The notes beneath the pieces were generated by a model that did not search any database, had not been told where the DNA came from, and saw only the letters and a program-made list of their open reading frames with translations. A DNA stretch of 64,000 nucleotides from the NCBI GenBank assembly GCA_965200155.1, contig CBDATR010000043.1:65858-129857 (forward strand). Direction: 5' to 3'. Position 1 is the first letter of the stretch, and each line of letters begins with the position of its first letter. Made by a program: the position numbers and the translations under genes. This stretch comes from Nitrosopumilaceae archaeon. GTDB lineage: Archaea > Thermoproteota > Nitrososphaeria > Nitrososphaerales > Nitrosopumilaceae. This document shows positions 2,396 through 57,657 of the stretch, in pieces.

Positions 2396-2494
2396 GTATG
2401 AGTTCACCTGTGTCTAAATTTACGCACAACTGATAGAACCGGTTACCAGTTAATGTGATTTGTGCACAAGATTCCGGAAGACGTGAACTCATAC
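2396..2494. mobile_element. MITE variant (99 bp) carried inside the IS5-like element
   Basis: Central tcgcg replaced by gtaaccggttct; no TSD; same variant at the same site in copy 3 (57382). Confidence 0.9.
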
Positions 2495-2549
2495 CATTAA
2501 TTTAGTGGATTTTCTGATGAGTAATATTCGAATTATAATAACACGGAAA

Positions 2550-3653
2550 TTATGGACAGATATTTTTCAAGAATTTCTTGTACCTGGTATGCTTGTGCAT
2601 AATGTGTAAATTATGCAACCCAGATACTACGAGTAGATCTTCCCGGAATTCCTCACGACTACCATCATATACCTGACTTAATCTACGATATACCTTTAGC
2701 ATTCGAATTACATTCTCGATTAATATGCGCCTTTTTGATACATATTGGTTGTATTTCCTTTCAGTTTTAGTGAGTGATTCCCTACCCCTGTATGGAATTA
2801 TGACCTTTGCGCCGGGTAGGAAGTCTTTCATACCCTGGTATCCTGCATCTGCTATTACTGTTATCTTCTCAGATGGCAGCGTGGTTGATTCTTTTAGGGA
2901 CTTGCCCCATTTGCCACCGAGGGGAATATCATTCTTGAATATACCATAATCGTGTCTTTTTCCCTCATATACTCCACTGACGTGAATTATCAGTCTTTTC
3001 TTGTTTGATGTTATCTGTACGTTATACGTATGGGTTTTTTGTTTACCAGAGTACATTGCCTCCTGATTTTTTTCAGGACGCTGTACGCGTACATGTGTCC
3101 CGTCAGTCTTTATCTCCCCTCCGGCTCGACCGGGAACAATTTCCTTAAAGTCGGGTGTTGACTTGATTTGTGATATTGCTTTTGCAACGGTATCGGCCGT
3201 TGGGAGTATCTTGATCAGTCCCTGCTTTGTAAACTGGATGTAACGGCATATGTTTGACTGGTTTATCTTGAGTATTGCAGCAAGAAGCTCCTGCTTTGTG
3301 TTGCAGCGCAGGCGTATCAGTGTAACTAAGAGTACATGCCTAATGGGAAATTTGTTCACATGGCCGCGATCATTTGTAAGTTCTAAGAATCGCCGTGCAT
3401 CATCGCCTTCCAGGGACTCTACGTATTCTGTGAATCTGGTTAGTATCCATTTGAACTCTTCCGGAGTGCATCCGGTCAGGGAATGAAGCTGATCCTTGCG
3501 TTCTATGATGTCATCGAGATTTGAAACGAGGGCATTCTTTGTTTGAGCTTCAAGTTTGGCGTGCAGGTTTGTTACTTCGGCCTCGGACCTGGTGCGTAGC
3601 CGGTAGTACTCTGTGACTAACTGCTCCTTGGTGAGTTCTTCTGCTTTTAGCAT
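2550..3653 (-). CDS. DDE_Tnp_4-type transposase
   Basis: HTH (LKINQSNICRY) plus KTDGT, YSGKQKTHT, GKRHD, IADAGYQG and RILIENVI motifs. Confidence 0.92.
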   Translation of the reverse strand: MLKAEELTKEQLVTEYYRLRTRSEAEVTNLHAKLEAQTKNALVSNLDDIIERKDQLHSLTGCTPEEFKWILTRFTEYVESLEGDDARRFLELTNDRGHVNKFPIRHVLLVTLIRLRCNTKQELLAAILKINQSNICRYIQFTKQGLIKILPTADTVAKAISQIKSTPDFKEIVPGRAGGEIKTDGTHVRVQRPEKNQEAMYSGKQKTHTYNVQITSNKKRLIIHVSGVYEGKRHDYGIFKNDIPLGGKWGKSLKESTTLPSEKITVIADAGYQGMKDFLPGAKVIIPYRGRESLTKTERKYNQYVSKRRILIENVIRMLKVYRRLSQVYDGSREEFREDLLVVSGLHNLHIMHKHTRYKKFLKNICP

Positions 3654-4108
3654 ACCTGGTATTACAAAATTAGGTCTTAACTTTTCTGTTTCATACGAGT
3701 CTGTGTGGGAAAACCCATGATATTAGGTCAATTGCTCGTATCTAACAACTTGGTTTAGACGTGCAGGGTGGGAGAAGTGATTCTGCGCATACGGTCTAAT
3801 AATCGCGTGAATTCATACCGACGATTACTAAACTCCAAACATATTTAGATGATTCTATCCACTGCTGGTGTATTGGAGAGTCTAATGCATACAATTGAGA
3901 TCATACGTTCCAAGATACATGAGCATGAATCAGTTTTATCACAGAATGAAAGCATGACTAGATATGTGTTAGTAGATCCATTGCTTCAAGGATTAGGTTG
4001 GGACTTGTCTGATCCAAATCAGGTAGAAACAGAAGTACATATCAATAAGAACAGTTATTTGGATTATATGTTGGGAAGAAAAATAATAATCGAAGCGAAA
4101 AAATTAGG

Positions 4109-5848
4109 GTATGAGTTCACGTGTTTTGATCACATAATAAGATAGAATACATCCCAGTTTTTTTAATTATAACTGCATTCTGGCAGCAACCTCGTTCATT
4201 ACAGAAAGGCCCTGAGCCCTCCATGTCTGAACACATGATACAAATGTAGACATGCGGCGCATTGCCCTTTCGCCACCCTTTATCTGACCACTAATCTTGC
4301 GGAATACCACTGCGTATCGCAAAGCCTGCTCCGCTGGATTGTTGGTGGGCTCTACACAGTCATATTCTAAGAATACGAACATACATGGTATGGCCTTATT
4401 CAATCCTTTTACCTTCTTTTGTAGTTCAGTATCATTAACATCACAGTACTGATGCAGAATGGATTCTGCTCCTGTCTCAAATGAGTGTCGTAATTGCGCG
4501 GACGGCCCGCAGTGATTCAGGGATTCCCGTGCGCTCCGGAACAATCCTTTCAGGTCGTTGTCAAGTTTGATCCGGGCGTACTGAGCACCGGGATCAATAT
4601 AGAATCCTGCATGTAATGCCTGGGTATCGCGCAGTAAATGCGCCCAACACAACTGGTGCCTCCCACCGTCATCAAACCGGCGATACACAACGTACCTGTC
4701 CGTTACTATCGCACCATGGTAACCGTTAAGGTATTTGTTCACTACATTTGAACTCCTACTTTTGTCATATATGGACATCATCCACTCTTCGGCCCGCATC
4801 CCCCATACCCAACCACGCCTACCCGCCAGTGATATACCAGTTTCGTCCACATGTATGCTGGGTGATTTTATTATATTCTCATGAATTGTTTCCATAAATG
4901 ATTCACATGCATCGGCGGCCCTGGCAATTATGTTGTTTACCGCACCCACAGATATATTCAGGCCGAAGAGATCCTTCGAAATTACAGGTATGCGTTTTAT
5001 TGGAATCTTTTCCGCACGCAATGCAGTGATAGCACCACATAATTGAACCCCAAAATCACCACTCTTTGGGACGCCAGCTGCTGGGGCCAGTTGTTTTTTG
5101 CCGCACCCACACGCAGCCATTTCTATCACATGAAGGGTCTCCTCTATTTTGGCTGGTATTAATTCCGTTATGTGTCGTTGTTTCCAACCAATTTTTGTCA
5201 TCATATTGCCGCACTCACATAGTGGAGTATGCTCAAAGGTGTGATGCACTATTCTGCCGGGGTTGTGGGAACGGGAAACCCCCTTGTGTCCCTTTTGAGC
5301 GCCAGCCTTTTTGGCTGATTTAGTACTGGCTTCTTTCTGTTTCTTATTATCTCCCTGTTTTCGCTTCTGTTCCTCCTGTTTTCGCTTCTTGTACTGGAGG
5401 GATTGAAGGGATGGTGGCGAGTGGGCATTCTCATAATATTTAAGTCGCGTTGTGAGTACCGCAATTTTCCTGTCTTTTTCTACTAATTCCTCTTTCAATT
5501 CATTTACATAATTTATAATAATTTGGAAATCTTGTGCGAGATTTCGTATTTCTTTTGTGGTGCGGGACACATATGCTTCCAATACTCTCACACGTTCCTT
5601 GTAATGTGCAAGATCTTTCTCGGTAGCCGCAAGACGTAGGACAAGGCGGCCCATGGCCCCTGCCTTGTAATGTGCAAGTTCTTTCTTGGTAGACGCAAGG
5701 GTATCCTGAAGAAGCTTATTTTTCAGTTCTAATTCCTTATAGGACAGGCGTCTTCTCATTAGATTCTTATTGCAAATTTGGTATTTAAGCAAAATATTGT
5801 CATACCAATCTATATCTTAGTGAATGATCAAAACACGTGAACTCATAC
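4109..5848 (-). mobile_element. IS66-family element (single-ORF, ISBst12-like), apparently intact
   Basis: 24-bp perfect TIR gtatgagttcacgtgttttgatca; 8-bp TSD aaattagg. Confidence 0.95.
4167..5792 (-). CDS. IS66 transposase (TnpC-like)
   Basis: Coiled coil, HSPPS, GAQKGHKG, Zn finger, HVDETG, VTDRY, QLCWAHLLR, PTNNPAEQALR. Confidence 0.95.
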   Translation of the reverse strand: MLKYQICNKNLMRRRLSYKELELKNKLLQDTLASTKKELAHYKAGAMGRLVLRLAATEKDLAHYKERVRVLEAYVSRTTKEIRNLAQDFQIIINYVNELKEELVEKDRKIAVLTTRLKYYENAHSPPSLQSLQYKKRKQEEQKRKQGDNKKQKEASTKSAKKAGAQKGHKGVSRSHNPGRIVHHTFEHTPLCECGNMMTKIGWKQRHITELIPAKIEETLHVIEMAACGCGKKQLAPAAGVPKSGDFGVQLCGAITALRAEKIPIKRIPVISKDLFGLNISVGAVNNIIARAADACESFMETIHENIIKSPSIHVDETGISLAGRRGWVWGMRAEEWMMSIYDKSRSSNVVNKYLNGYHGAIVTDRYVVYRRFDDGGRHQLCWAHLLRDTQALHAGFYIDPGAQYARIKLDNDLKGLFRSARESLNHCGPSAQLRHSFETGAESILHQYCDVNDTELQKKVKGLNKAIPCMFVFLEYDCVEPTNNPAEQALRYAVVFRKISGQIKGGERAMRRMSTFVSCVQTWRAQGLSVMNEVAARMQL

Positions 5849-6024
5849 AAATTAGGTACTCGTTTGGATGATTCTCGTGAGCAATTACTTGGTTACATGA
5901 AAGATGAAAAAGAACTCCAATATGGTATACTCACCAATGGTAATTACTGGCGAATATTCACACCCAATTCGACCTCTATAAGTTGTGAATGTGAAATTAA
6001 AAGTAGTGATGTTGGAAATACATT

Positions 6025-7570
6025 AGACCGTATGCGCAGAATCACTTCTCCCACCCTGCACGTCTAAACCAAGTTGTTAGATACGAACAATTGACCTAGT
6101 ATCATGGGTTTTCCCACAGACTCGTGTGAAACAGAAAAGTTAAGACCTAATTTTGTAATACCAGGTATGCTAAAAGCAGAAGAACTCACCAGGGTGCAGT
6201 TAGTCACAGAGTACTACCGGCTACGCACCAGGTCCGAGGCCGAAGTAACAAACCTGCGTGGCAAAGTTGACAGTTTACGTGGGAAAAATGACAGCCTGCA
6301 CGCCAAACTTGAAGCTCAAACAAAGAATGCCCTCGTTTCAAATCTCGATGGCATCATAGAACGCAAGGATCAGCTTCATTCCCTGACCGGGTGCACCCCG
6401 GAAGAGTTCAAATGGATATTAATCAGATTCACAGAATACGTAGAGTCCCTGGAAGGCGATGATGCACGGCGATTCTTAGAACTTACAAATGATCGCGGGC
6501 ACGTGAACAAATTTCCGGTCAGGCATGTACTCTTAGTTACACTGATACGCCTGCGCTGCAATACAAAGCAGGAGCTGCTGGCAGCAATACTCAAGATAAA
6601 CCAGTCAAACATATGCCGTTACATCCAGTTTACAAAGCAGGGACTGATCAAGATACTCCCAACGGCCGATACCGTTGCAAAAGCAATATCGCAAATCAAG
6701 TCAGCATCGGACTTTAAGGAAATTGTTCCCGGTCGAGCCGGAGGGGAAATAAAGACTGACGGGACACATGTACGCGTACAACGTCCTGAAAAAAATCAGG
6801 AGGCAATGTACTCTGGTAAACAAAAAACCCACACGTATAACGTACAGATAACATCAAACAAGAAAAGACTGATAATTCACGTAAGTGGAGTATATGAGGG
6901 AAAAAGACACGATTATGGCATATTCAAGAATGATATTCCCCTTGGAGGCAAATGGGGCAAGTCCCTAAAAGAATCAACCACGCCGCCATCCGATAAGATA
7001 ACAGTAATAGCAGATGCAGGATACCAGGGTATGAAAGACTTCCTACCCGGCGCAAAGGTCATGATTCCATACAGGGGTAGGGAATCACTCACTAAAACTG
7101 AAAGGAAATACAACCAATATGTATCAAAAAGGCGCATATTAATCGAGAATGTAATTCGAATGCTAAAGGTATATCGTAGATTAAGTCAGGTATATGATGG
7201 TAGTCGTGAGGAATTCCGGGAAGATCTACTCGTAGTATCCGGGTTGCATAATTTACACATTATGCACAAGCATACCAGGTACAAGAAATTCTTGAAAAAT
7301 ATCTGTCCATAATTTCCGTGATATTATAATTCGAATATTACTCATCAGAAAATCCACTAAATTAATGGGTTTTGTGGTAACCATTTAGCTCACTCATGAT
7401 ATACGTCATCAAGATCCGGTCACCCCACTACACGACATTTGTAATCACGGCATACGTTAGTGCTGGCAGGTGCCATTCACATTGTTCATGCTTGACTGAT
7501 TGTGTGCCATAAAATACACCCCAGTTTGAAGCAACATGGGCTATTCCTGTCAATCATGCGCATAAGGTCT
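6025..7570 (+). mobile_element. IS5-family element, copy 2 (no MITE)
   Basis: Same TIRs as copy 1; TSD ATT. Confidence 0.92.
6167..7312 (+). CDS. DDE_Tnp_4-type transposase
   Basis: Near-identical to 2550..3653, with two extra coiled-coil heptads. Start chosen to match copy 1; the ORF track starts at 6104. Confidence 0.92.
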   Translation: MLKAEELTRVQLVTEYYRLRTRSEAEVTNLRGKVDSLRGKNDSLHAKLEAQTKNALVSNLDGIIERKDQLHSLTGCTPEEFKWILIRFTEYVESLEGDDARRFLELTNDRGHVNKFPVRHVLLVTLIRLRCNTKQELLAAILKINQSNICRYIQFTKQGLIKILPTADTVAKAISQIKSASDFKEIVPGRAGGEIKTDGTHVRVQRPEKNQEAMYSGKQKTHTYNVQITSNKKRLIIHVSGVYEGKRHDYGIFKNDIPLGGKWGKSLKESTTPPSDKITVIADAGYQGMKDFLPGAKVMIPYRGRESLTKTERKYNQYVSKRRILIENVIRMLKVYRRLSQVYDGSREEFREDLLVVSGLHNLHIMHKHTRYKKFLKNICP

Positions 7571-27187: not shown

Positions 27188-29116
27188 ACTGTTCGTTCAC
27201 TCTCTGGTTGTGGTCGTTACCACAAGAATTATTCAATGGTATGGAATACCTTGGTAAATTCTAAAGAATAGCGCCCGCCATGACTCCTTGGATAAATTTG
27301 TTGGAATATAGGTTTCCCCCTACCGCGCTCTCCCAGAACCTTCCACCGGCATCATTCCAGGAATGGTAACCCCTCCCGCATGGAACTTGATTCTGGTAAC
27401 AGTAATTCCAGACTCACTTTTTATAACAATAATAATGACTGAGTAATATGGGCAAATTCAATGAAGTATTAGAGCAGATACGTCGGGAATCAGGGAATAA
27501 CAAGGAGCTTGGTGACAAGTTTGAGGTGCTCATGGTGGAGTATTTCAAGAATTGTAAGCAGTACGGCTTGGAAGATGTACAAATATGGCCCAAACAAGAT
27601 TTGGGAATAGATATACTGGCGCATGACAAGTTCGGGGAACGGTGGGCAATACAATGCAAATGTCATGATGTTGATTCCACATTACAGTATGAGGGAAATG
27701 TATCCAATTTGTGGTCTGCCGCCGAAATGAATGGTATACAAAACAATAGTCACCACTGCCAAACCCAGCACCAACCTTGAAAAAGTATGTAAACAGACCA
27801 ATACACATATCATATGAGGATCTCGAATCCGCCAATATAGAGTGGAGTACTGATATCATTCAGGCACGAGAGCCCCACAAATTATACGAACATCAAAGTG
27901 AGGCTTTAAAGGATTGTCTGGACGGGTTCACCAAGCATGATCGCGGTCAACTCATCATGGCATGCGGTACTGGTAAGACACTAACATCACTCCATATAGC
28001 GGAAAAACAAGTCGGGAATAGTGGATTGGTTCTATATCTTGTGCCGTCCATATCGCTCATAAAGCAGACTATACAAGCATGGTCTGAGAATGCCAACATA
28101 GAACATCAGTACATGGTAGTTTGCTCAGACAGTACCGTAAAAGGTAAGGAGGATATCTCTGTGACTGATATAGTTGGATCAGTGACGACTGATCATGACT
28201 TATTGAGGGAGCAGTATGAAAAGACCAATAGCGATGCGCGTTATTTTCTGCACGTACCAGTCCGCGGATGTCATAAAGGAATCATTCAGCGGAATGCAGT
28301 TTGACTTGATAATATTCGATGAAGCGCATAGGACGGCCGGAAAACAGGATAAGAGCTTTGCTCTAGCACACCATGACGAGAATATTAACTCTGCAAAAAG
28401 ACTCTACATGACTGCAACTCCCCGTATGTACAATCGGGAGGGCGTGACTGATGGTTATTCCATGGATGATTATAGTATATTCGGTAGACGGTTCCACGAG
28501 TTGAAGTTCTCCAAGGCCATAGATACTGGCATACTATCTGATTACAAGGTAGTGGGACTTCGTATCTTGGCCGATGATTTGGACAAGGCTAGGGCAGACG
28601 CGGGCGAGGCCGATGATTTCACACTGGAGGAGGAGTGTAAGCTGGCATCAATATACAAGTCCATAAAGCAGCAGGATGAGAGTCTGGAACCAAATCTCCT
28701 ACAGCGTATTCTAGTATTCCATAATAAAATACCACAATCTAAACGATTCGAGATTGCATTTCCCAAGATAGTGAAACGAATGGATGGAGAAGGTGTGGAT
28801 GTACGTCATATTGACGGGAATAGTCGTGCACGGGACCGCGCGTCAACCATAGAGTGGTTGAAGAGGGGGGAATCCGATGTACGAATAATATCAAATGTAA
28901 GATGTCTATCAGAAGGAGTGGATGTTCCCGCCCTGGATGGTGTGGTATTCTGCGAGCCCCGCCAGTCAGTAATAGATGTGGTGCAGTCACTTGGGAGAGT
29001 AATGCGAAAGTCACCGGGCAAAAGTATAGGATATGTTATAGTACCTGTAGTGGTATCTCGTAACGAGGCTATTGAGCATGTTATAAATCGCGATAAATCA
29101 AACAAGCTAATACTTC

Positions 29117-29238
29117 GTATGAGTTCACCTGTGTCTAAATGGAACGGGTCATTCTATAACTGATCGCGACAGTTAAAGAGTAACCGGTTACTATTTTGTG
29201 CATAAGATTGGAACCGGTTCCAAGACGTGAACTCATAC
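29117..29238. mobile_element. MITE variant (122 bp) with three palindromic filler replacements
   Basis: TSD aatacttc; +9, +13 and +8 bp relative to the 92-bp consensus. Confidence 0.92.
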
Positions 29239-29359
29239 AATACTTCAGCTTGCAGATGCATTAAGAGCACATGATGACAGGATAGACCGCTACTTCAATC
29301 AGGCGAGACTTGTTTCTGATGGTGGTTCCGGTGGTGAGAGTTCGGAGCCCGGTATAATA

Positions 29360-32227
29360 GTGCCGCCGCAAATTGCCAGTATTTTTGATGTCCTGCCTGC
29401 AACACTACTCAAGGTCGGATACTATTGGGATGATTACGGGTTCAAACTGGGTGAGAAAGCTGCCATAGTCGCGATGAAGGCCAAGAATCGCGGTGAAACA
29501 GCATTCATAGAACGATTACATAAAGACCTACAAGGTGTAGTCAGCGATACAATAACGCGAGATGATACTATAGATGCTATTTCACAACATATCGTACTGG
29601 CGCCTGTCTTTGAGGCGCTTTTCGGGCAGACAAGTAACCCAGTTTGGAAGGCGTTTAACCATGTAGCAGAAGAATTAGACTTTAGTACGGAATTAGATGA
29701 TTTAGAAGAGTGGCACCAATTAATGTGGTACCATGTTGAGAATATAACAAATCCACAGGCAAAGCAGAATGTAATAATCAAGGTATATGGTAATTTCTTT
29801 AAGGGATTTGACAAAAAACAGGCCAAGACCATAGTATACACGCCTGTCGAAATAGTGGATTTCATTATTCAATCGGCACAGTATGTATTGGAGTCAGAGT
29901 TCGGAACAGGGTTCGATGGGAATATTCGCGTGTTGGATCCTTTCGCAGGAACCGGTGTATTTCTGGCTCGGTTGTTAGAATCAGGTCATTTGGGTACGCA
30001 TCCAGCAGAGATGCTTTTTGGTGAGAACAAGTTATTAGCATATTATACCGCGTGCGCAAATCTGGAAACCACAATGGAGAAGGTGACAGGGATTAGCACT
30101 CCGTTCATGAATGGTTCATACGTGGATACATTCACAATTCCGCCGGATTGGCTGGAGTTAAAGGCGCAGGGTAGGGCACATGTACAATCCATGATAGATG
30201 ACACATTATTCCGCAAGGCGCGCGGGCTTGTTGATAAACAGCGGGACAAGCGCATAATAGGTAATCCACCATACTCTGGTGGGCAGAGAACCGCCAACGA
30301 GGACAAGAAGAATGATTCCCACCCCATTCTAGAACCACGCATAAAGAATACGTACATTAGAATGGCGCCCAAGGGGAATAAGAGGGGATTATACAATTCA
30401 TATGTCAAGGCCATTCGTTGGGCATCAGAAAGAATCGGGGAGTCGGGAGTAATCGGTTTCATAACACCCTCTGGTTTCATCACAGGGAATAGTGAAGCTG
30501 GTATACGCGCCTGTCTTGAAATGGAGTTCACTGATGTGTACTGCTTTGACTTGAGAGGTGATGTGAAAAAAAGTGACTGGCGACGTGAGGGTGGCAAGAT
30601 ATTTGGGAGTGGCTCAACTGTGGGTACCGCTATAACCATCCTGGTGAAGAACCCCGCCAAACATCATTCTACGATTCACTATCATGGCATCGGCAACTAC
30701 TTGAGTAGAGAGGAGAAGTTGGAAATCATAAAAGAGCATGGTTCCATTGCAGGAATGGAATGGGAGATTATAACACCGGATCGATTCCATGACTGGTTAG
30801 AACAGCGTGGCGATACCAGTGAACAGTGGGATTCCATCACTCCAATGGGGAGTAAAGAGGGAAAGCAGGGGGAGATTGGTGTGACGTTTGGTGAATATTC
30901 ACGCGGTCTGGCTACTTCCAGAGATCCATGGGCATACAATTCATCCATTGATAAATTGGAAAATAATATGAAGCAACACATCAACTATTGTAACGGACAA
31001 GATTTGAATAATTTTGTGGTTGATCCAAAACAGGCGAAAAAGAATAGTTCCATGATAGAACGCATGAAAAAGTTGGGCAGAAAGGTGGACTTTGATAAGA
31101 ATAAAATACGTACAGTGTTGTATAGACCATTTTTCAAGCAGTATCTGTATTTTGATCCAATCTTTGTTCATGAGCCGACTGTGGTTTCACCATTCTTTCC
31201 AACCGGTGGCTCCAAGAATATTGCCATCATGGTGGCTGACAAAATAAAGGGTGTGTTCTCCACGTTTGTAACAGGAATAACACCGGATCTACACATCCAC
31301 GAGGCATCCCAATGCTTTCCCATGAGAGTCAAGAAACAAAAGGACAAGAATAGACATGTGGTAGGTAACCAGTCAACCAGTCAACCAGTCAACCAGTCAA
31401 CCAGTCAACCAGTCAACCATCGAGAACCTGGCGATAATAGTCCCCGACAAAATAAAGGGCGAATTCTCAGTATTCATAACGGGAATAACACCGGATCTGG
31501 AAGTGGTGCATCACGGGCAGGTATTCCCCATGTTCACACAGTCACCGGAGGTGACGAGATGAAGGACAACATCACCGACTATTCCCTGGAACTATACCAG
31601 AAACGATATAATGATGACTCCATAACTAAAGAGGACATATTCTACTACACCTATGGCATTCTACATCATAATGGTTATCGTTCCAAGTATCAAGCATTCC
31701 TTGTTAGGGGATTACCGAATATTCCCATGGCGCCTGACTTCCGTGCCTTTGAGAGAGCAGGGCGTCAGTTAGCTAACTTGCACCTGAATTATGAGATGTG
31801 CCCCCGTTATGATCTTGGTGAACCATTATCTCCAATACCGGACGCGCCAAAAAAGATAGCCTTTGGTAAGAAACCAAATAGAACCGGTTCCCCGGGCCCC
31901 AAAGACAAACCGGATCCGTCAACCATCATAATAGACGGCCAAAAGATATACAATAACATACCATTAATCAATTACAAAGTGAATGGTCGTACCCCCGTGG
32001 GCTGGTTCGTGGACAGATACCAGTACAGGGAGAACATAGAAAGTGGCATCACCAACTACCCACTGGAGGGTGCCACCGGTGATGAAACACGCGCCATAAT
32101 AGAACGGTTAGTATACGTTGGAATGGAGTCAGATAATATCATAACCAACCTCCCAACTGAATTCGAGATGGAACTGGAACAAGAACCAACCGGCCTGGAC
32201 AAGTACTACAAGGCGCCCATTCCCTAA
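29360..32227 (+). CDS. Open MTase-TRD half of the type ISP enzyme
   Basis: 955-aa ORF containing MTase motif I (FAGTG), motif IV (NPPY) and the ISP C-terminal domain. Confidence 0.75.
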   Translation: MPPQIASIFDVLPATLLKVGYYWDDYGFKLGEKAAIVAMKAKNRGETAFIERLHKDLQGVVSDTITRDDTIDAISQHIVLAPVFEALFGQTSNPVWKAFNHVAEELDFSTELDDLEEWHQLMWYHVENITNPQAKQNVIIKVYGNFFKGFDKKQAKTIVYTPVEIVDFIIQSAQYVLESEFGTGFDGNIRVLDPFAGTGVFLARLLESGHLGTHPAEMLFGENKLLAYYTACANLETTMEKVTGISTPFMNGSYVDTFTIPPDWLELKAQGRAHVQSMIDDTLFRKARGLVDKQRDKRIIGNPPYSGGQRTANEDKKNDSHPILEPRIKNTYIRMAPKGNKRGLYNSYVKAIRWASERIGESGVIGFITPSGFITGNSEAGIRACLEMEFTDVYCFDLRGDVKKSDWRREGGKIFGSGSTVGTAITILVKNPAKHHSTIHYHGIGNYLSREEKLEIIKEHGSIAGMEWEIITPDRFHDWLEQRGDTSEQWDSITPMGSKEGKQGEIGVTFGEYSRGLATSRDPWAYNSSIDKLENNMKQHINYCNGQDLNNFVVDPKQAKKNSSMIERMKKLGRKVDFDKNKIRTVLYRPFFKQYLYFDPIFVHEPTVVSPFFPTGGSKNIAIMVADKIKGVFSTFVTGITPDLHIHEASQCFPMRVKKQKDKNRHVVGNQSTSQPVNQSTSQPVNHREPGDNSPRQNKGRILSIHNGNNTGSGSGASRAGIPHVHTVTGGDEMKDNITDYSLELYQKRYNDDSITKEDIFYYTYGILHHNGYRSKYQAFLVRGLPNIPMAPDFRAFERAGRQLANLHLNYEMCPRYDLGEPLSPIPDAPKKIAFGKKPNRTGSPGPKDKPDPSTIIIDGQKIYNNIPLINYKVNGRTPVGWFVDRYQYRENIESGITNYPLEGATGDETRAIIERLVYVGMESDNIITNLPTEFEMELEQEPTGLDKYYKAPIP
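31367..31419. repeat. (aaccagtc)6 simple sequence repeat in the TRD region
   Basis: Six perfect 8-mers plus a partial unit, between two homologous TRD segments. Confidence 0.95.
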
Positions 32228-32452
32228 TGAGTTCACGTGATGTTCCAGGAACGTGTTAGAAGAGAAATATTGCGGTAATCATATATCCACTCTCCAGTAC
32301 AAGGGACTCAAGTCCTTACAAGGGACTATTATTCTAATAGGCTAGCGCATGTCTCATCCACACATGAAGTGCTGGTTTGGGATACAACATGTCTATTCTC
32401 ACATCAGTATCAAAGCAATGCTTTTAACATTGTATTTCAACTAATTTTTAAA

Positions 32453-34807
32453 ATGTTACAATATAATAACCGTACCAATATTACATTTAAAGCCTTAATC
32501 GGGGGGGGGGGGCTCCTTCTTGCACTAGTATTAGTACCGGCCACTGATCTTGCGTTTGCTCAAACAACCAGTCCAATATTTGGCCTTACAGTAACTCCTG
32601 CCTCCACTGGTGCCACCGTTACATGGAATCAGTACCAAGACCATACCAATTATGTCGTGGTGTTACTTGATGGAGATGGAAATAAAATTTCTGGTGGGGT
32701 AACACGCGTTACAGGACTCACACATGATATTACCGGACTGACTTCTAACACTGACTATATGGTATTTGTCAGAACCACTGGAGCTGGCTTTGTCCAGTCC
32801 AACTCTGTATCATTTAGCACAATTGACTTTGGCTTCACTAATGCTATATCAGACATTACCATGAATGAGGCCGAGAGAAAAACCATACCACTCAGTGTAA
32901 CCCCTGCGAGTGATTCTGTCACATATGCGATAACCAAACAGGACGGCACGGCTGCACCCAGCTTTGCATCCATAGATTCCATATCTTTTGACGGTACAAT
33001 TACAGACGGCATTGTTTTTACTCCTGACAGAGAAGACAGTGGGGAATATTCGCTGCGTCTCACGGCAACTATTGGTGATGGCACCGCCACTGAAAACTTT
33101 TTACTTACCGTAAATGACCCTGGTATTGATCCACCCCAAATCAAAGCCCAAACTAGCACCTCTGTAACTATAGAGATCGCCTCAGAAGACATTAATACAC
33201 AAGACTCAACCTGTACATTCGCCGATATCTACCCAACCTCCTCTGGACGTTCAAGTGTTGTTTCACATGGTTTCACATCAAACCCTCTAACAATTACGGG
33301 CCTCTCACCGGATACTGCATACACCATAATTGTGGGCAAATCATGTATTCCCTTGGGAAATCTGGGAATCCTCCAGTTCACTACATCTGGGGGTAGTGTA
33401 GGACAATCAGTTCAAGGTAATCTCAGATTCACAAACACCATAAAAGACATTACCATGGCCGAGGGTACAACACGTCACATAAAGCTAAATGCAACTGATT
33501 CTGATAATAGGGACATTACATATAGTGTAGATGTCCTGAACGACAAGACATTACCTGGGTCTGCAGGAACATCAAATGGTTTCCTCGTTTTGGAGCCTGA
33601 TAGAACAGCAGCAGGAGAATACACTCTACGTGTCACAGCAACTGCTGGCAGCGACACTAAACGTGATGAATTTGTACTTACCGTAAGTGATCCTGGTATT
33701 GATCCACCCCAAATCAAAACTAAAAATAGCACCTCTGTAACTATAGAGGTCGCCTCAGAGGACTATAATACAAAAGACGCAACCTGTACAACCGCCGGTA
33801 TCTTCGAAACCTCCTCCGGGCCTTCAGGTGCTGAAATAGAGGATTTCGAATCAAACCCCTTGACAATTACGGGCCTCACACCTGATACTGCATACACCAT
33901 AAGTGTGTATAAATTCTGTGATCCCGCTGGAATTCTGGGAACCCTAAAGTTCACTACATCTGGGGGTCGTGTAGCACAATCAGTTCAAGGTGATTTCAGA
34001 TTCACTAACACCATAAATGACATTACCATGGCCGAGGGCACAATACACAGCATACAGCTAAATGCAATAGATCCGGATAATAGGGACATCACATATAGTG
34101 TAGAGATCCTGAACGATAAGACATTACCTGGATCATTAGGAATATTCAATGATAACCTCCTACAGCTGGCGCCTGATAGAACAGCAGCAGGAGAATACAC
34201 TCTGCGTGTCACAGCAACTGCTGGTAGCGACACCATACGTGATGAATTTACACTTACCGTAAGTGACTCTGGCACATCTTCACTCCAAATCAAAACCCAA
34301 ACTAGAACCTCTGTGACTGTGGAGGTAGCCTCAGCGGACTATAATCCACAAGATGCAACCTGTATATTCGCCGATATCTACCCAACCTCTTCCGGACCTT
34401 CAAGTGCCGTTTCACATAGTTTCAGAACAAACCCTCTAACAATTACGGGCCTCTCACCTGATACTGCATACACCATAATTGTGGGCAAAGAATGTATTCC
34501 CATGGGAAATCTGGGAACCCTCCAGTTCAATACATCTGGGAACAGTCAGACATCTTTAGTACTAAGTAGAACCATAAGTGGCAATGATGTTACTCTAAGC
34601 TGGAACAACTTGGCAAGTACCTATGTAGTGGTGGTATTTGATGGGGAAAGAGACCGAGTCATTACTGGCGGATCAGCACGCGTATCAACTAACTCATATA
34701 CGCTCAATGACCTAGACGCTGACACATATACGGCATTTGTGAGAACCCCTGGACCCTCAGGAACTTCTACCATGTCCAACACTGTAACCTTTACTATCAC
34801 TAGTTAA
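32453..34807 (+). CDS. Secreted fibronectin-III / cadherin-like repeat surface protein
   Basis: Signal peptide ending AFA-Q; FN3 motifs ITGLxPDTAYTI x3 and ITGLTSNTDY; three ~190-aa Ig+FN3 repeats. Start uncertain (ORF track gives 32369). Confidence 0.85.
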   Translation: MLQYNNRTNITFKALIGGGGLLLALVLVPATDLAFAQTTSPIFGLTVTPASTGATVTWNQYQDHTNYVVVLLDGDGNKISGGVTRVTGLTHDITGLTSNTDYMVFVRTTGAGFVQSNSVSFSTIDFGFTNAISDITMNEAERKTIPLSVTPASDSVTYAITKQDGTAAPSFASIDSISFDGTITDGIVFTPDREDSGEYSLRLTATIGDGTATENFLLTVNDPGIDPPQIKAQTSTSVTIEIASEDINTQDSTCTFADIYPTSSGRSSVVSHGFTSNPLTITGLSPDTAYTIIVGKSCIPLGNLGILQFTTSGGSVGQSVQGNLRFTNTIKDITMAEGTTRHIKLNATDSDNRDITYSVDVLNDKTLPGSAGTSNGFLVLEPDRTAAGEYTLRVTATAGSDTKRDEFVLTVSDPGIDPPQIKTKNSTSVTIEVASEDYNTKDATCTTAGIFETSSGPSGAEIEDFESNPLTITGLTPDTAYTISVYKFCDPAGILGTLKFTTSGGRVAQSVQGDFRFTNTINDITMAEGTIHSIQLNAIDPDNRDITYSVEILNDKTLPGSLGIFNDNLLQLAPDRTAAGEYTLRVTATAGSDTIRDEFTLTVSDSGTSSLQIKTQTRTSVTVEVASADYNPQDATCIFADIYPTSSGPSSAVSHSFRTNPLTITGLSPDTAYTIIVGKECIPMGNLGTLQFNTSGNSQTSLVLSRTISGNDVTLSWNNLASTYVVVVFDGERDRVITGGSARVSTNSYTLNDLDADTYTAFVRTPGPSGTSTMSNTVTFTITS
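32501..32512 (+). repeat. G12 homopolymer in the signal-peptide coding region
   Basis: Seen directly; currently in frame (LIGGGGLL). Confidence 0.9.
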
Positions 34808-36263: not shown

Positions 36264-36355
36264 GTATGAGTTCACCTGTGTCTAAATTTACGCATAACTG
36301 ATCGCGACAGTTAATGTGATTTGTGTACAAGATTCCGGAAGACGTGAACTCATAC
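36264..36355. mobile_element. 92-bp MITE (no TSD, fused to an IS66 remnant)
   Basis: Consensus copy. Confidence 0.92.
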
Positions 36356-36926
36356 TCACAGACAGGTACGCCGTGTATCGCCGGTTTGATGACGGTGGGA
36401 AGCACCATCTGGGCGCATTTATTGCGCGATACCAGTATATTACATGCAGGATTCTATATCGATCCCGGTGATCAGGACGCCCGGATCAAACTTGACAACG
36501 ATTTGAAAGAATTGTTCCGGAGCGCACGTGAATCGCTGCGGGCCGTCCGCGCAATTACGACACTCATTTGAGGCAGGAGCAGATGCATCAGTACTGTGAT
36601 GTTGAGGATACTGAACTGCAAAAGAAGGTAAAAGGATTGAATAAGGCCATACCAGGCATGTTCGTATTCCTAGAATATGACAGTGTGGAGCCGACCAACA
36701 ATCCAGCGGAGCAGTGGAACCGGTTCTGATACGCAGTGGTATTACGTAAGATTAGTGGTCAGATAAAGAGTGGTGAAAGGGCCATGCGCCGCATGTCCAC
36801 ATGTGTTCAGAGATGGCGGGCTCAGGGCCTTTCTGTAATGAACGAGGTTGCTGCCAGAATGCAATTATAATTAAAAACTGGGATGCATTCTATCTTATTA
36901 TATGATCAAAACACGTGAACTCATAC
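36356..36926 (+). mobile_element. IS66 3' remnant
   Basis: Degenerate match to 43910-44501, ending in the TIR. Confidence 0.9.
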
Positions 36927-37321
36927 AAGATATGACATGGTGGACTTGCCGCCTATCTTCCCGCTTGTCCCTATTATGGAGTATAGTCGTTCATTGATAT
37001 CGGCGATCTCACCCCACCAGGCCTGATCAACATCATTCAATGTCCATGTGTCCTGGAATGATGCACCGGCCGCCTTGGAGCCTATGGGGGCGGCATAGTT
37101 ATGCTTGGGTATGAGTTCACGTCTTCCGGAATCTTATACACAAATCACATTAACTGTCGCGATCAGTTGTGCGTAAATTTAGACACAGGTGAACTCATAC
37201 ATGCTTGGAGTTGAAGGGCGGATCAAGGTATATCAAGTCTATACTATTCTTTTCCATACCGCGCATTATACTAAGATTGTCGGCCACAAAAATGGTCCTG
37301 TTCTCGGGGGGGGGGGGTCAT
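36927..37321 (-). pseudogene. Beta-class N6/N4 DNA methyltransferase, 5' fragment with poly-C tract after the start codon
   Basis: ENRTIFVADNLSIMRGMEKNSIDLIYLDPPFNSKH|NYAAPIGSKAAGASFQDTW; interrupted by a MITE and truncated by IS66. Confidence 0.85.
37109..37200. mobile_element. 92-bp MITE
   Basis: TSD atgcttgg. Confidence 0.95.
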
Positions 37322-42733: not shown

Positions 42734-44501
42734 GTATGAGTTCACGTGTTTTGATCATTCACTAAGATATAGATTGGTATGGCAATATTTTACTTAAATA
42801 CCAAATTTGCAATAAGAATCTAATGAGAAGACGCCGGTCCTATAAGGAATTGGAACTGGAAAATAAACTTCTTCAGGATACCCTTGCGTCTACCGAGAAA
42901 GATCTTGCACATTACAAGGAACGTGTGAGAGTATTGGAAGCATATGTGTCCCGCACCACAAAAGAAATACGAAATCTCACACAAGATTTCCAAATTATTA
43001 GGAATTATGTAAATGAATTGAATGAGAAATTAAAAGAAAAACAGGGGAAAATTGCGGTACTCACAACGCGACTTAAATATTATGAGAATGCTCACTCGCC
43101 ACCATCCCTTCAATCCCTCCAGTACAAGAAGCGAAAACAGGAGGAACAGAAGCAGGGAGATAATAAGAAACAGAAAGAAGCCAGTACGAAATCAGCCAAA
43201 AAGGCTGGCGCTCAAAAGGGACACAAGGGGGTTTCCCGTTCCCACAACCCCGGCAGAGTAGTGCATCACACCTTTGAGTACACACCAATATGTGAGTGCG
43301 GCAATATAATGACAAAAATTGGTTGGAAACAACGACACATAACGGAATTAATACCAGCCAAAATAGAGGAGACCCTTCATGTGATAGAAATGGCTGCATG
43401 CAAGTGCGGCAAAAAACAACTGGCCCCAGCAGCTGGCGTCCCAAAGAGTGGTGATTTTGGAGTTCAATTATGCGGTGCCATCACTGCATTGCGTGCGGAA
43501 AAGATTCCAATAAAACGCATACCTGTAATTTCGAAGGATCTCTTCGGCCTGAATATATCTGTGGGTGCGGTAAACAACATAATTGCCGTATGAGTTCACC
43601 TGTGTCTAAATTTACGCATAACTGATCGCGACAGTTAATGTGATTTGTGCATAAGATTCCGGCAGACGTGAACTCATACTAATTGCCAGGGCCGCCGATG
43701 CATGCGAATCATTTATGGAAACAATTCATGAGAATATAATAAAATCACCCAGCATTCATGTGGATGAAACTGGTATATCACTGGCGGGTAGGCGTGGCTG
43801 GGTATGGGGGATGCGAGCCGAAGAGTGGATGATGTCCATATATGACAAAAGTAGGAGTTCAAATGTAGTGAACAAATACCTGAACGGTTACCAGGGAGCG
43901 ATAGTAACGGACAGGTACGTTGTGTATCGCCGGTTTGATGACGGTGGGAAGCACCAGTTGTGTTGGGCGCATTTATTGCGCGATACCCAGGCATTACATG
44001 CAGGATTCTATATCGATCCCGGTGCTCAGGACGCCCGGATCAAACTTGACAACGACCTGAAAGGATTGTTCCGGAGCGCACGGGAATCCCTGAATCACTG
44101 CGGGCCGTCCGCGCAATTACGACACTCATTTGAGGCAGGAGCAGAATCCATTCTGCATCAATACTGTGATGTTGATGATACTGAACTACAAAAGAAGGTA
44201 AAAGGATTGAATAAGGCCATACCATGCATGTTCGTATTCTTAGAATATGACTGTGTAGAGCCCACCAACAATCCAGCGGAGCAGGCTTTGCGATACGCAG
44301 TGGTATTCCGCAAGATTAGTGGCCAGATAAAGGGTGGCGAAAGGGCAATGCGCCGTATGTCCACATTCGTATCATGTGTTCAGACATGGAGGGCTCAAGG
44401 CCTTTCTGTAATGAACGAGGTTGCTGCCAGAATGCAGTTATAATTAAAAAAACTGGGATGCATTCTATCTTATTATGTGATCAAAACACGTGAACTCATA
44501 C
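42734..44501 (+). mobile_element. IS66 copy with transposase (42823..44443) disrupted by its own MITE
   Basis: 24-bp TIRs; ORFs 42823..43593 and 43715..44443 rejoin when the MITE is removed. Confidence 0.95.
43588..43679. mobile_element. 92-bp MITE
   Basis: TSD taattgcc. Confidence 0.95.
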
Positions 44502-56080: not shown

Positions 56081-57657
56081 AGACCGTATGCGCAGAATCA
56101 CATCTCCCACCCTGCACGTCTAAACCAAGTTGTTAGATACGAACAATTGACCTAGTATCATGGGTTTTCCCACAGACTCGTGTGAAACAGAAAAGTTAAG
56201 ACCTAATTTTGTAATACCAGGTATGCTAAAAGTAGAAGAACTCACCAGGGAGCAGTTAGTCACAGAGTACTACCGGCTACGCACCAGGTCCGAGGCCGAA
56301 GTAACAAACCTGCGTGGCAAACTTGAAGCTCAAACAAAGAATGCCCTCGTTTCAAATCTCGATGACATCATAGAACGCAAGGATCAGCTTCATTCCCTGA
56401 CCGGATGCACCCCGGAAGAGTTCAAATGGATACTAACCAGATTCACAGAATACGTAGAGTCCCTGGAAGGCGATGATGCACGGCGATTCTTAGAACTTAC
56501 AAATGATCGCGGCCATGTGAACAAATTTCCCATTAGGCATGTACTCTTAGTTACACTGATACGCCTGCGCTGCAACACAAAGCAGGAGCTGCTGGCAGCC
56601 ATACTCAAGATAAACCAGTCAAACATATGCCGTTACATCCAGTTTACAAAGCAGGGACTGATCAAGATACTCCCAACGGCCGATACCGTTGCAAAAGCAA
56701 TATCGCAAATCAAGTCAGCATCGGACTTTAAGGAAATTGTTCCCGGTCGAGCCGGAGGGGAGATAAAGACTGACGGGACACATGTACGCGTACAACGTCC
56801 TGAAAAAAATCAGGAGGCAATGTACTCTGGTAAACAAAAAACCCACACGTATAACGTACAGATAACATCAAACAAGAAAAGACTGATAATTCACGTAAGT
56901 GGAGTATATGAGGGAAAAAGACACGATTATGGCATATTCAAGAATGATATTCCCCTTGGAGGCAAATGGGGCAAGTCCCTAAAAGAATCAACCACGCCAC
57001 CATCTGAGAAGATAACAGTAATAGCAGATGCAGGATACCAGGGTATGAAAGACTTCCTACCCGGCGCAAAGGTCATAATTCCATCCAGGGGTAGGGAATC
57101 ACTCACTAAAACTGAAAGGAAATACAACCAATATGTATCAAAAAGGCGCATATTAATCGAGCATATAATTCGAATGCTAAAGGTATATCGTAGATTAAGT
57201 CAGGTATATGATGGTAGTCGTGAGGAATTCCGGGAAGATCTACTCGTAGTATCCGGGTTGCATAATTTACACATTATGCACAAGCATACCAGGTACAAGA
57301 AATTCTTGAAAAATATCTGTCCATAATTTCCGTGTTATTATAATTCGAATATTACTCATCAGAAAATCCACTAAATTAATGGTATGAGTTCATGTCTTCC
57401 GGAATCTTGTGCACAAATCACATTAACTGGTAACCGGTTCTATCAGTTGTGCGTAAATTTAGACACAGGTGAACTCATACAACCGTTTAGCTCACTTCCG
57501 ATATACTTCATCAAGATCCGGTTACCCCACTACACGACATACGTTAGTGCTGGCAGGTGCCATTCACATTGTTCATGCTTGACGGATTGTGTGCCATAAA
57601 ATACACCCCAGTTTGAAGCAACATGGGCTGTTACTGTCAATCATGCGCATAAGGTCT
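56081..57657 (+). mobile_element. IS5-family element, copy 3 (contains variant MITE 57382..57480)
   Basis: TIRs; TSD AAT. Confidence 0.92.
56223..57326 (+). CDS. DDE_Tnp_4-type transposase
   Basis: Near-identical to the other two copies. Confidence 0.92.
   Translation: MLKVEELTREQLVTEYYRLRTRSEAEVTNLRGKLEAQTKNALVSNLDDIIERKDQLHSLTGCTPEEFKWILTRFTEYVESLEGDDARRFLELTNDRGHVNKFPIRHVLLVTLIRLRCNTKQELLAAILKINQSNICRYIQFTKQGLIKILPTADTVAKAISQIKSASDFKEIVPGRAGGEIKTDGTHVRVQRPEKNQEAMYSGKQKTHTYNVQITSNKKRLIIHVSGVYEGKRHDYGIFKNDIPLGGKWGKSLKESTTPPSEKITVIADAGYQGMKDFLPGAKVIIPSRGRESLTKTERKYNQYVSKRRILIEHIIRMLKVYRRLSQVYDGSREEFREDLLVVSGLHNLHIMHKHTRYKKFLKNICP

Follow-up and report, generated by a model that had tools for sequence, protein, structure and literature searches.

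A probable three-state switch built from a simple sequence repeat and a second, out-of-frame Loop VI segment in Type ISP restriction-modification genes of Nitrosopumilaceae

A 64,000-nt stretch of contig C43 from the assembly of a Nitrosopumilaceae archaeon, hereafter called the window, contains a Type ISP restriction-modification gene whose target-recognition domain holds a simple sequence repeat and a second copy of a DNA-reading element in another reading frame. This locus is probably a member of a phase-variable Type ISP gene family with a three-state switch, in which the gene product is either a fused enzyme with a first recognition loop, an enzyme split into two chains with a second recognition loop, or a truncated protein. 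Coordinates without prefix are positions in the window; G000 denotes the host assembly, and Gnnn and Lnnn denote other genomes and loci. All features described for the window gene lie on the plus strand.

The open reading frame (ORF) at 29360..32227 encodes 955 aa with an ISP_coupler domain, an N6-adenine methyltransferase (NPPY) and the target-recognition domain, and it represents the fused state S1 (ORF translation, Pfam, PDB matches to LlaGI and LlaBIII). Segment 1 (NIAIMVADKIKGVFSTFVTGITPDLHIHEASQCFPM; 31217..31324), read in the frame of the N-terminal part, encodes a beta-hairpin and the first copy of Loop VI (PDL-HIHEASQC), as assigned by translation, alignment with LlaBIII and LlaGI and the strands of an AlphaFold2 model. 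It is followed by the basic linker RVKKQKDKNRHVVG (31325..31366), which paralog comparison shows to be common to most paralogs of the host genome, and by 6.6 units of AACCAGTC (31367..31419), detected by Tandem Repeats Finder (TRF) with a period of 8 and 100% matches. The unit is not divisible by 3 and is stop-free in every frame; the window tract is the only run of at least three such units in the 2.38-Mb assembly. Segment 2 (NLAIIVPDKIKGEFSVFITGITPDLEVVHHGQVFPM; 31425..31532), defined by translation and by its substitution pattern, encodes the hairpin and a second Loop VI copy (PDL-EVVHHGQV) one base ahead of the C-terminal frame. In the third frame TAA TAG follows directly behind the repeat (31435..31440), and the same ATAATAG is present in most paralogs. 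In most loci the two isoleucines of segment 2 are encoded by ATA-ATA (31430-31440 in the window), which creates this third-frame TAATAG; stops would be expected there anyway. The Shine-Dalgarno-type motif GGAGGTGA (31547..31554), complementary to the 16S rRNA 3' end GAUCACCUCCU, lies 4 nt before an ATG, and in the ATGA at 31559..31562 the ATG of MKDNITDY (31559-31561) overlaps the TGA of the segment-2 frame (31560-31562). From this ATG onward, 222 aa (31559..32227) form the C-terminal module, which corresponds to the second half of the recognition domain according to Pfam matches of equivalent paralog ORFs; it is fused here and would be a separate ORF in state S2. A preliminary description of this DNA, made from the letters alone, had placed an in-frame segment, a repeat and a homologous segment in another frame at this site, the latter ending in a TGA that overlaps the ATG of MKDNITDY behind a Shine-Dalgarno motif, and frame translation confirms each of these elements in its place.

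The proposed mechanism starts from an insertion that immediately follows the strand-loop element with Loop VI inside the target-recognition domain and that holds the linker, the non-triplet repeat and the second Loop VI copy in its different frame. If the repeat slips when the DNA is replicated, the ribosome would be shifted among the three frames. In S1, the N-terminal part and segment 1 would be continued through the repeat and through the segment-2 DNA, read as a disordered linker of ~70 aa, into the C-terminal half, giving a single-chain enzyme that uses Loop VI copy 1. The window allele is presently in this state: its N-terminal and C-terminal parts share one frame, and the segment-2 DNA is read as linker in an alternative stop-free frame. 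In S2, segment 2 would be read in its own frame up to the TGA overlapping the ATG, and the C-terminal half would be supplied as a separate 222-aa subunit by Shine-Dalgarno re-initiation, giving a two-chain enzyme with Loop VI copy 2 beside the break. In S3, the stops directly behind the repeat would yield a truncated and presumably inactive protein. Independent initiation of segment 2 was considered and dropped: in the window the segment-2 frame contains no ATG, GTG or TTG from the upstream stop to segment 2 itself, and translation of segment 2 must therefore come through the repeat, that is, in S2.

That the gene encodes a Type ISP enzyme, as the preliminary description had proposed, follows from its Pfam domains and its solved relatives. 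Along 27448-32227 the domain order is Mrr_cat_2, ResIII, Helicase_C, ISP_coupler, Eco57I and Type_ISP_C, and the best matches in a PDB sequence search are LlaGI and LlaBIII (E 1e-108 and 3e-96). The methyltransferase motifs FxGxG and NPPY are present as LDPFAGTGVF and IIGNPPYSGGQ and align with both enzymes. In the 29360-32227 ORF the Type_ISP_C profile is matched from position 3 to 341 of 342 but spread over 406 residues, which points to an insertion inside the recognition domain. Segment 1 aligns to LlaBIII 1335-1372 and to LlaGI chain residues 1175-1206; as this LlaGI chain lacks residues 2-165, its H1204 corresponds to H1368 of the full enzyme. The accessible part of the structural study (PMC4872093) describes LlaGI residues 1347-1358 as a conserved beta-hairpin of the recognition-domain core and Loop VI (1365-1374) as one of three base-reading loops of this domain. 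It further reports that LlaGI H1368 and the positionally equivalent LlaBIII N1360 read G or A at target position +3, and that G1372 and Q1373 read the partner base (PMC4872093). The segments of the archaeal loci align with the 1347-1358 hairpin plus Loop VI, and the residue directly after PDL, H in segment 1 and E in segment 2, aligns with H1368 and N1360; the loops read HIHEASQC and EVVHHGQV, respectively. This mapping onto LlaBIII and LlaGI, suggested in the preliminary description, agrees with its claim that the copies differ in the recognition part after PDL. The accessible text of the same study cautions that swapping contact residues may not suffice to obtain a new specificity (PMC4872093), and for this reason a difference in specificity between S1 and S2 is something we infer.

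The recognition domain of the window allele in S1 (456 aa) was modelled with AlphaFold2 from a 25-row alignment, giving a mean predicted local distance difference test (pLDDT) of 79 and a predicted template modelling score (pTM) of 0.77. Segment 1 (model residues 121-156) forms strands with confidence. Residues 164-232, comprising the linker, the repeat peptide and the alternative-frame segment 2, have a pLDDT below 50, and the fold resumes at MKDNITDY. The top Foldseek matches of the model are LlaGI, LlaBIII and DrdV (E 1e-24 to 1e-18). As modelled, it is plausible that S1 is a folded enzyme with a floppy loop of ~70 residues. No natural candidate for structure prediction was found that joins the two segments and the C-terminus in a single frame.

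The preliminary description had proposed to look for the same architecture in homologs, and it recurs widely. The host assembly (2.38 Mb, 51 contigs, 87.6% complete) carries a small-subunit (SSU) rRNA that scores 1438 bits on the archaeal and 1093 bits on the bacterial model, and the sequencing runs containing the stretch are labelled sponge metagenome. About a dozen Type ISP loci are present in this genome, ten of which, the window locus and nine others, consist of segment 1, linker, repeat, segment 2 and C-terminal part. Another two loci contain just one segment and are in one frame throughout; one of these is a segment-1/segment-2 hybrid. There are several truncated ISP fragments too. As an observation on the assembly, G000 contigs below ~11 kb (C2, C4, C6, C8, C11, C14, C18, C26, C29, C33, C38-C40, C49) have a G+C content of 0.36-0.41 compared with ~0.47 and contain long homopolymer and dinucleotide tracts; they may represent contamination of the bin, for example by host DNA. 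A scan of 401 family genomes detected the segment in 32 of them; 15 genomes, belonging to four genera, contain tandem pairs, and 14 of these 15 provided the 26 tandem loci examined. Besides the ten host loci, these comprise 16 loci in 13 other Nitrosopumilaceae genomes of four genera, among them the same-genus genome G005; the related loci come from records named Nitrosopumilaceae archaeon, Nitrosopumilus sp., Thaumarchaeota archaeon and Cenarchaeum sp. The design is also found in genomes assembled into one or two contigs (G004, G005, G368, G400). The recurrence of the layout indicates more than chance.

The repeats at the junction are very diverse. AACCAGTC (x6.6) occurs in the window only; other G000 loci carry AGCCAGTC x5 (four loci), x6 (one locus) and x1 (one locus), TCCACCAG x7, CACCACT x9 and GA x ~10 (one locus each). 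In other genomes the same layout contains CAATCCG x9, AGACTCC x11-17, an 11-mer x88, GA/AG x5-26, CA x6 or G x11, and GA/AG tracts are the commonest repeat among the loci. Altogether, at least 11 different frame-shifting repeat units sit at the same spot across the 26 loci, none of them divisible by 3, and 12 of 12 units are stop-free in every frame (chance ~0.014 if the units are independent). On G000 contigs of at least 50 kb, eight of the ten repeat tracts of at least 18 nt lie at these segment junctions. A tandem repeat equivalent to the window tract is present in 24 of the 26 loci, the others being L021, which has no repeat, and C24:487206, which has a single unit. The most extended tract belongs to L041 (G383:C1:1572610-1575741), where 88 copies of the 11-nt unit AACCCACTCAG (968 nt) lie between the segments, starting 54 nt after segment 1, and encode an 11-residue periodic peptide in all three frames. 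L040 (G041:C1:1-2743) has three tandem segments at 837-1251 with three different Loop VI alleles, (GA)5 after the first segment and G7 between the second and third, and may be a nested switch. In L020 (G004:C1:547200-548900) a CCAAC repeat (~35 units) precedes both segments, which are in different frames.

The relative frames of segments and C-terminal part follow a regular pattern. In 19 single-segment loci, and in the two of the host genome, the segment is in the same frame as the C-terminal part. In 21 tandem loci, the main type, the last segment is one base ahead of the C-terminal part; in two further loci and the variant L020 it is one base behind (opposite offset), and in two loci an extra base brings it back into the C-terminal frame. 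For the main type, a locus is read as S1 if the N-terminal frame equals the C-terminal frame, as S2 if it equals the segment-2 frame, and as S3 if it leads into the third frame with its early stop; among 25 loci the three states are represented 9, 7 and 9 times. A divergent Type ISP locus with 44% identity lies on the minus strand ~6 kb before the start of the window (C43:57352-60113); it has the same design with a GA repeat, its segment 2 lags the C-terminal frame by one base, and no ATG is present for a separate C-terminal ORF.

Segment 2 is conserved as a protein. When 22 unique sequences from 25 loci are compared pairwise in the segment-2 frame, they differ on average by 0.23 at the first, 0.13 at the second and 0.51 at the third codon position, and the ratio of nonsynonymous to synonymous substitutions (dN/dS) of the 22 sequences is 0.15 in its own frame vs 2.2 in the C-terminal frame. 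In the first 14 unique sequences these values were 0.15 vs 2.85, with all 36 third positions variable; segment 1 has a dN/dS of 0.17. The design is kept over a synonymous divergence of ~1.3. Neutral decay of segment 2, named in the preliminary description as an outcome that would speak against a switch, was thus not found; instead, the substitution pattern indicates that segment 2 is under purifying selection as a protein in its own frame and is no relic. The frame in which the segment-2 DNA has to be read through was analyzed by fixing the segment-2 peptides and redrawing synonymous codons from the codon usage of the host genome. The C-terminal frame was stop-free through segment 2 in all 13 main-type loci tested, compared with 4-22% of the synonymous draws (mostly ~6%), and it is likewise open in nine further loci. 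In the two loci with segment 2 fused in frame to the C-terminus a stop is present in the frame that is not needed there, and in one opposite-offset locus tested the needed frame is open where 0.5% is expected. From codon usage, this indicates that the read-through frame is maintained by selection.

Furthermore, the overlap of stop and start is a conserved feature: 20 of the 21 main-type loci have ATGA and the other has TGATG, the Met of the overlap lies 1-3 residues before the conserved DNITD motif, and none of 16 single-segment relatives has a Met at that place. Upstream of the overlap, GGAGGTGA or GGTGAT-like motifs complementary to the 16S 3' end GAUCACCUCCU are found. A stop over a start with a ribosome-binding site before it is the layout of translational coupling, by which re-initiation is predicted. 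In two paralogs the large ORF holds Type_ISP_C positions 2-158/160 and the 222-aa ORF positions 167-327 (Pfam). In public protein collections 380 clusters match the C-terminal ORF (E <=1e-10, length range 122-389 aa); among the 120 clusters listed, most are ~220 aa long. Stand-alone C-terminal ORFs begin with M-x(0-3)-[DGN]N[IV]T in 45 of 46 sampled cases, and the sole name met for them was 'hypothetical protein' (in a Cenarchaeum metagenome-assembled genome). For the natural S2 pair of L006 (the large ORF's final 264 aa together with the ORF of 222 aa, each with its own alignment) a predicted complex obtained a score of 0.30, the mark being 0.32, in a run without controls, which speaks neither way on binding. 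Contigs of RNA libraries cover parts of the window gene; DNA carry-over is possible, and they were not used as evidence of expression. Taken together, the frames, the three states, selection on segment 2, the open read-through frame and the ATGA conservation support the earlier proposal that repeat number sets both the translation of segment 2 and whether the C-terminus is fused or separate.

The strongest rival explanation is a plain ON/OFF switch, in which only the fused S1 is active, segment 2 is a duplication relic serving as spacer, and S2 and S3 are both OFF. We consider this unlikely, albeit to be taken seriously. ON/OFF switching is the usual outcome of frame-shifting repeats in restriction-modification genes, as far as the accessible parts of the literature describe it (PMC5909438, PMC4889913, PMC7383803), the S1 model folds with segment 1 alone, and two loci have no start codon for a separate C-terminal subunit. 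A mere spacer, however, would keep neither a dN/dS of 0.15 with every one of its 36 third positions variable nor a Loop VI motif of canonical form. The ON/OFF reading also leaves unexplained that segment 2 is conserved at the protein level and that the stop/start overlap, with its ribosome-binding site, is kept in 20 of 21 loci, its Met being missing from 16 of 16 single-segment relatives.

The segments also appear to exchange sequence. At G000 C22:28819-28938 and C24:238617-238736 collapsed or hybrid segments are present: one has a segment-1-like start and a segment-2-like loop, no repeat and everything in frame, and the other a segment-2-like start and a segment-1-like loop. The hybrid segments (C22:28929, C24:238650) point to recombination between copies, which had been suggested in the preliminary description. 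In addition, a small set of Loop VI alleles (HIHEASQ, EVVHHGQ, QVxxNGQ, NNIxPxQ, HVxETSx) occurs in either position across the loci, which fits cassette exchange. The segments could thus serve mainly as crossover sites, by which recombination or gene conversion swaps C-terminal modules and Loop VI alleles among the approximately dozen paralogs, with the repeat being secondary. Besides the hybrid segments and the alleles shared between positions, the C-terminal parts of the paralogs, which have 68-81% identity compared with 54-63% for the N-terminal parts, speak in favor of this possibility. Yet it offers no account of why the frames are offset and the alternative frame is open, nor of the ATGA overlap and the non-triplet repeats, and genomes with a single locus keep the design. 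As a full account it is improbable, and it is compatible with the three-state switch rather than exclusive of it.

A difference in repeat number was seen directly in one case. Contigs C42 and C34 are 99.47% identical over 4.5 kb, and across the 4.1 kb of C34:78175-82296 their sole difference is one 8-bp AGCCAGTC unit, with six units in C42 and five in C34. This one-unit difference puts one copy in S1 and the other in S3; these copies may be separate loci, or a single locus may be present in two variants within the population sampled. Such DNA-level variation bears on the idea that frames are mixed at the level of RNA or the ribosome, by transcriptional slippage or ribosomal frameshifting, so that one allele makes all products without heritable switching. 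In the accessible part of a preprint, frameshift suppression at (AG)n is described for a Mycoplasma bovis mod gene fragment in Escherichia coli (10.64898/2026.04.01.715767). GA/AG tracts being the commonest repeat in the archaeal loci, this idea has some footing. No slippery sites with a unit of 7, 8 or 11 nt are known, which counts against it. Moreover, it is opposed by the one-unit DNA difference between otherwise identical copies and by the even spread of the three states among the loci, as DNA slippage predicts. We therefore regard it as more improbable still than a mere role in crossover.

The upstream half of the window copy is damaged. Pfam and a tblastn search with an intact paralog identify an Mrr-type nuclease fragment (Mrr_cat_2/Mrr_cat; 27448..27780), whose frame differs from that of the gene's remaining parts and after which the frame changes, an N-terminal ResIII/DEAD ATPase fragment in a second frame (27777..28304) and, as third piece, the end of ResIII with Helicase_C (28216..29163). 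The intact 1409-codon paralog frame aligns to the window as four pieces spread over three frames. Among them, paralog residues 298-642 match 28213-29094 and, in another frame, residues 648-1404 match 29240-31411; the homology is broken off at ~29095-29240, between the helicase and coupler parts. This interval encodes an 'MSSPVSK' motif that also borders the truncated ISP fragments C24:458585, C9:42512 and C9:115500 and may be the end of a mobile element. An alternative genetic code was considered and dropped, as the frames differ by indels rather than by in-frame stops. With three frame changes between nuclease, ATPase and coupler, the window copy is no single polypeptide of the kind formed by Type ISP enzymes, and on its sequence it would act as a methyltransferase at best. 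In the paralogs an unbroken chain extends halfway into the recognition domain, and its continuation depends on the repeat; a single chain results only from S1 alleles with an intact N-terminal part, for example in G003 (open frame of 1445 aa, one TAG inside the match) and G388:C102 (1686 aa). ORFs of ~1400 aa are intact in many loci. The intact C34 ORF (1397 aa) comprises Mrr, ResIII, Helicase_C, coupler, methyltransferase and Type_ISP_C positions 2-158, followed by its 222-aa ORF with positions 167-327. Tandem duplication and frameshifts in decaying restriction genes of a symbiont genome rich in insertion sequences (IS), or an assembly artefact, would agree with the damaged window copy, the truncated ISP fragments and the many repeated elements of the host genome, but are highly improbable given the design's presence in one- or two-contig genomes, its maintenance over a synonymous divergence of ~1.3 and the intact ~1400-aa ORFs.

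Several points weigh against the three-state switch. With its three frame changes in the nuclease-helicase half, the window copy may be a decaying member of the family. For the window locus no read-level variation in repeat length was seen, as Logan contigs (from four of nine runs, ~90-450 nt, broken by paralogs) never bridge 31367-31419; in metagenome contigs, neither a pattern of both repeat flanks with a variable gap nor the segment-2 peptide found a match. L021, lacking a repeat, is locked in S1. Two opposite-offset loci (C43:58167, L051) have no ATG for the C-terminal part, so that S2 cannot yield a separate subunit there. The large chain of S2 carries both segments, either of which could enter the fold. 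The loci are related, and counts across them are not independent. Finally, the conservation of segment 2 could in part derive from gene conversion among paralogs; since the single-locus genomes G003, G008, G063, G362 and G406 keep segment 2 intact, gene conversion from functional paralogs cannot explain all of it.

Weighing these points, we still favor the three-state family described at the outset. The more specific proposal is that every such gene works as a heritable switch with three positions, set stochastically and encoded by overlapping frames, which gives loop A in a fused enzyme, loop B in a split enzyme reading another +3 base, or no enzyme; this we put forward tentatively, at somewhat below even chances. 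In the family account, too, it is inferred that S2 assembles and uses copy 2, that S1 and S2 read a different base at target position +3, and that switching takes place at an appreciable rate in cells.

In the neighborhood of the gene, an 812-aa ORF with matches to fibronectin type III and other Ig-like domains lies directly downstream (32369-34807). Copies of repeated elements of ~0.3-1.7 kb, similar to IS or to miniature inverted-repeat transposable elements (MITE), are located at window ~2478-7367, 36352-36928, 42734-44501 and 56193-57392 (C43:68335-73224, 102209-102785, 108591-110358 and 122050-123249). They belong to several families with dozens of copies across the assembly at 87-99% identity.

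If the proposed switch operates, about ten loci in a 2.4-Mb genome would provide a clonal archaeal population with thousands of combinations of restriction specificities and methylomes, in a sponge setting that the accessible part of the literature describes as one of heavy phage exposure (PMC7848895). It would be the first switch of this kind, with phase-variable specificity, among Type ISP enzymes, would stand among very few contingency loci described in archaea and would provide evidence that such loci shape archaeal defence and methylomes. The loci would also represent a natural experiment on the control of Type ISP specificity by Loop VI and a model on which switchable specificities could be engineered. 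As to annotation, public ORFs of ~220 aa called 'hypothetical' would, in their hundreds, be the detachable half of these enzymes, and many seemingly frameshifted ISP genes would not be pseudogenes but states of a switch.

In host-adapted bacteria, phase variation of restriction-modification genes by means of repeats is a familiar phenomenon; it results in ON/OFF switching or, in Type I systems, in the dropping of a whole recognition domain. A literature search, with most subscription journals outside it and hence no proof of an unpublished finding, retrieved phase-variable Type I, III and IIG systems and NgoAV hsdS, and nothing on Type ISP enzymes, archaea or a recognition cassette in two frames. 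The closest relatives in sequence and fold, LlaGI and LlaBIII of Lactococcus, share the order of Mrr nuclease, superfamily 2 (SF2) ATPase, coupler, gamma-class N6-adenine methyltransferase and Type_ISP_C. However, the lactococcal enzymes are uninterrupted single chains with one Loop VI and no repeat, whereas in the archaeal loci a repeat and a further Loop VI copy in another frame are inserted into the recognition domain, which can be divided between two ORFs. Closest in the manner of switching are the poly-G tract of NgoAV hsdS and the 'extended' hsdS of Mannheimia haemolytica, in which, according to the accessible part of the source, an in-gene repeat shifts the frame to give products of different specificity, beyond ON/OFF (PMC7383803). 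There, a whole recognition domain is dropped from or added to a separate S subunit (PMC7383803). The archaeal loci work alike but are not of the NgoAV type: no HsdS is involved, the repeat is located within a single recognition domain of an enzyme that is fused, and a sub-domain cassette of 36 residues would be exchanged in a single-chain enzyme, with its DNA used in two overlapping frames and a stop/start overlap re-supplying the downstream half. Repeat-switched genes for combined restriction-modification enzymes or methyltransferases share the stochastic switching of expression by an in-gene repeat (PMC4889913, PMC5909438); as far as these sources are accessible, such genes are ON/OFF, their specificity alleles vary between strains, and no second in-gene cassette in another frame is described. 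Likewise, the inverting Type I hsdS shufflons of Streptococcus pneumoniae and Mycoplasma pulmonis make a stochastic choice among recognition modules at one locus (PMC7383803, PMC7394358), but in the accessible accounts DNA is inverted between separate hsdS genes, either site-specifically or by homology, and slippage and overlapping frames play no part. Compared with these systems, what appears new is that one stretch of DNA would serve as an alternative recognition cassette in one frame and as a stop-free linker in another, that a conserved stop/start overlap would rescue the downstream half of a domain, that such a switch would reside in a single-chain Type ISP enzyme, and that it occurs in archaea of the ammonia-oxidiser type from runs labelled sponge metagenome.

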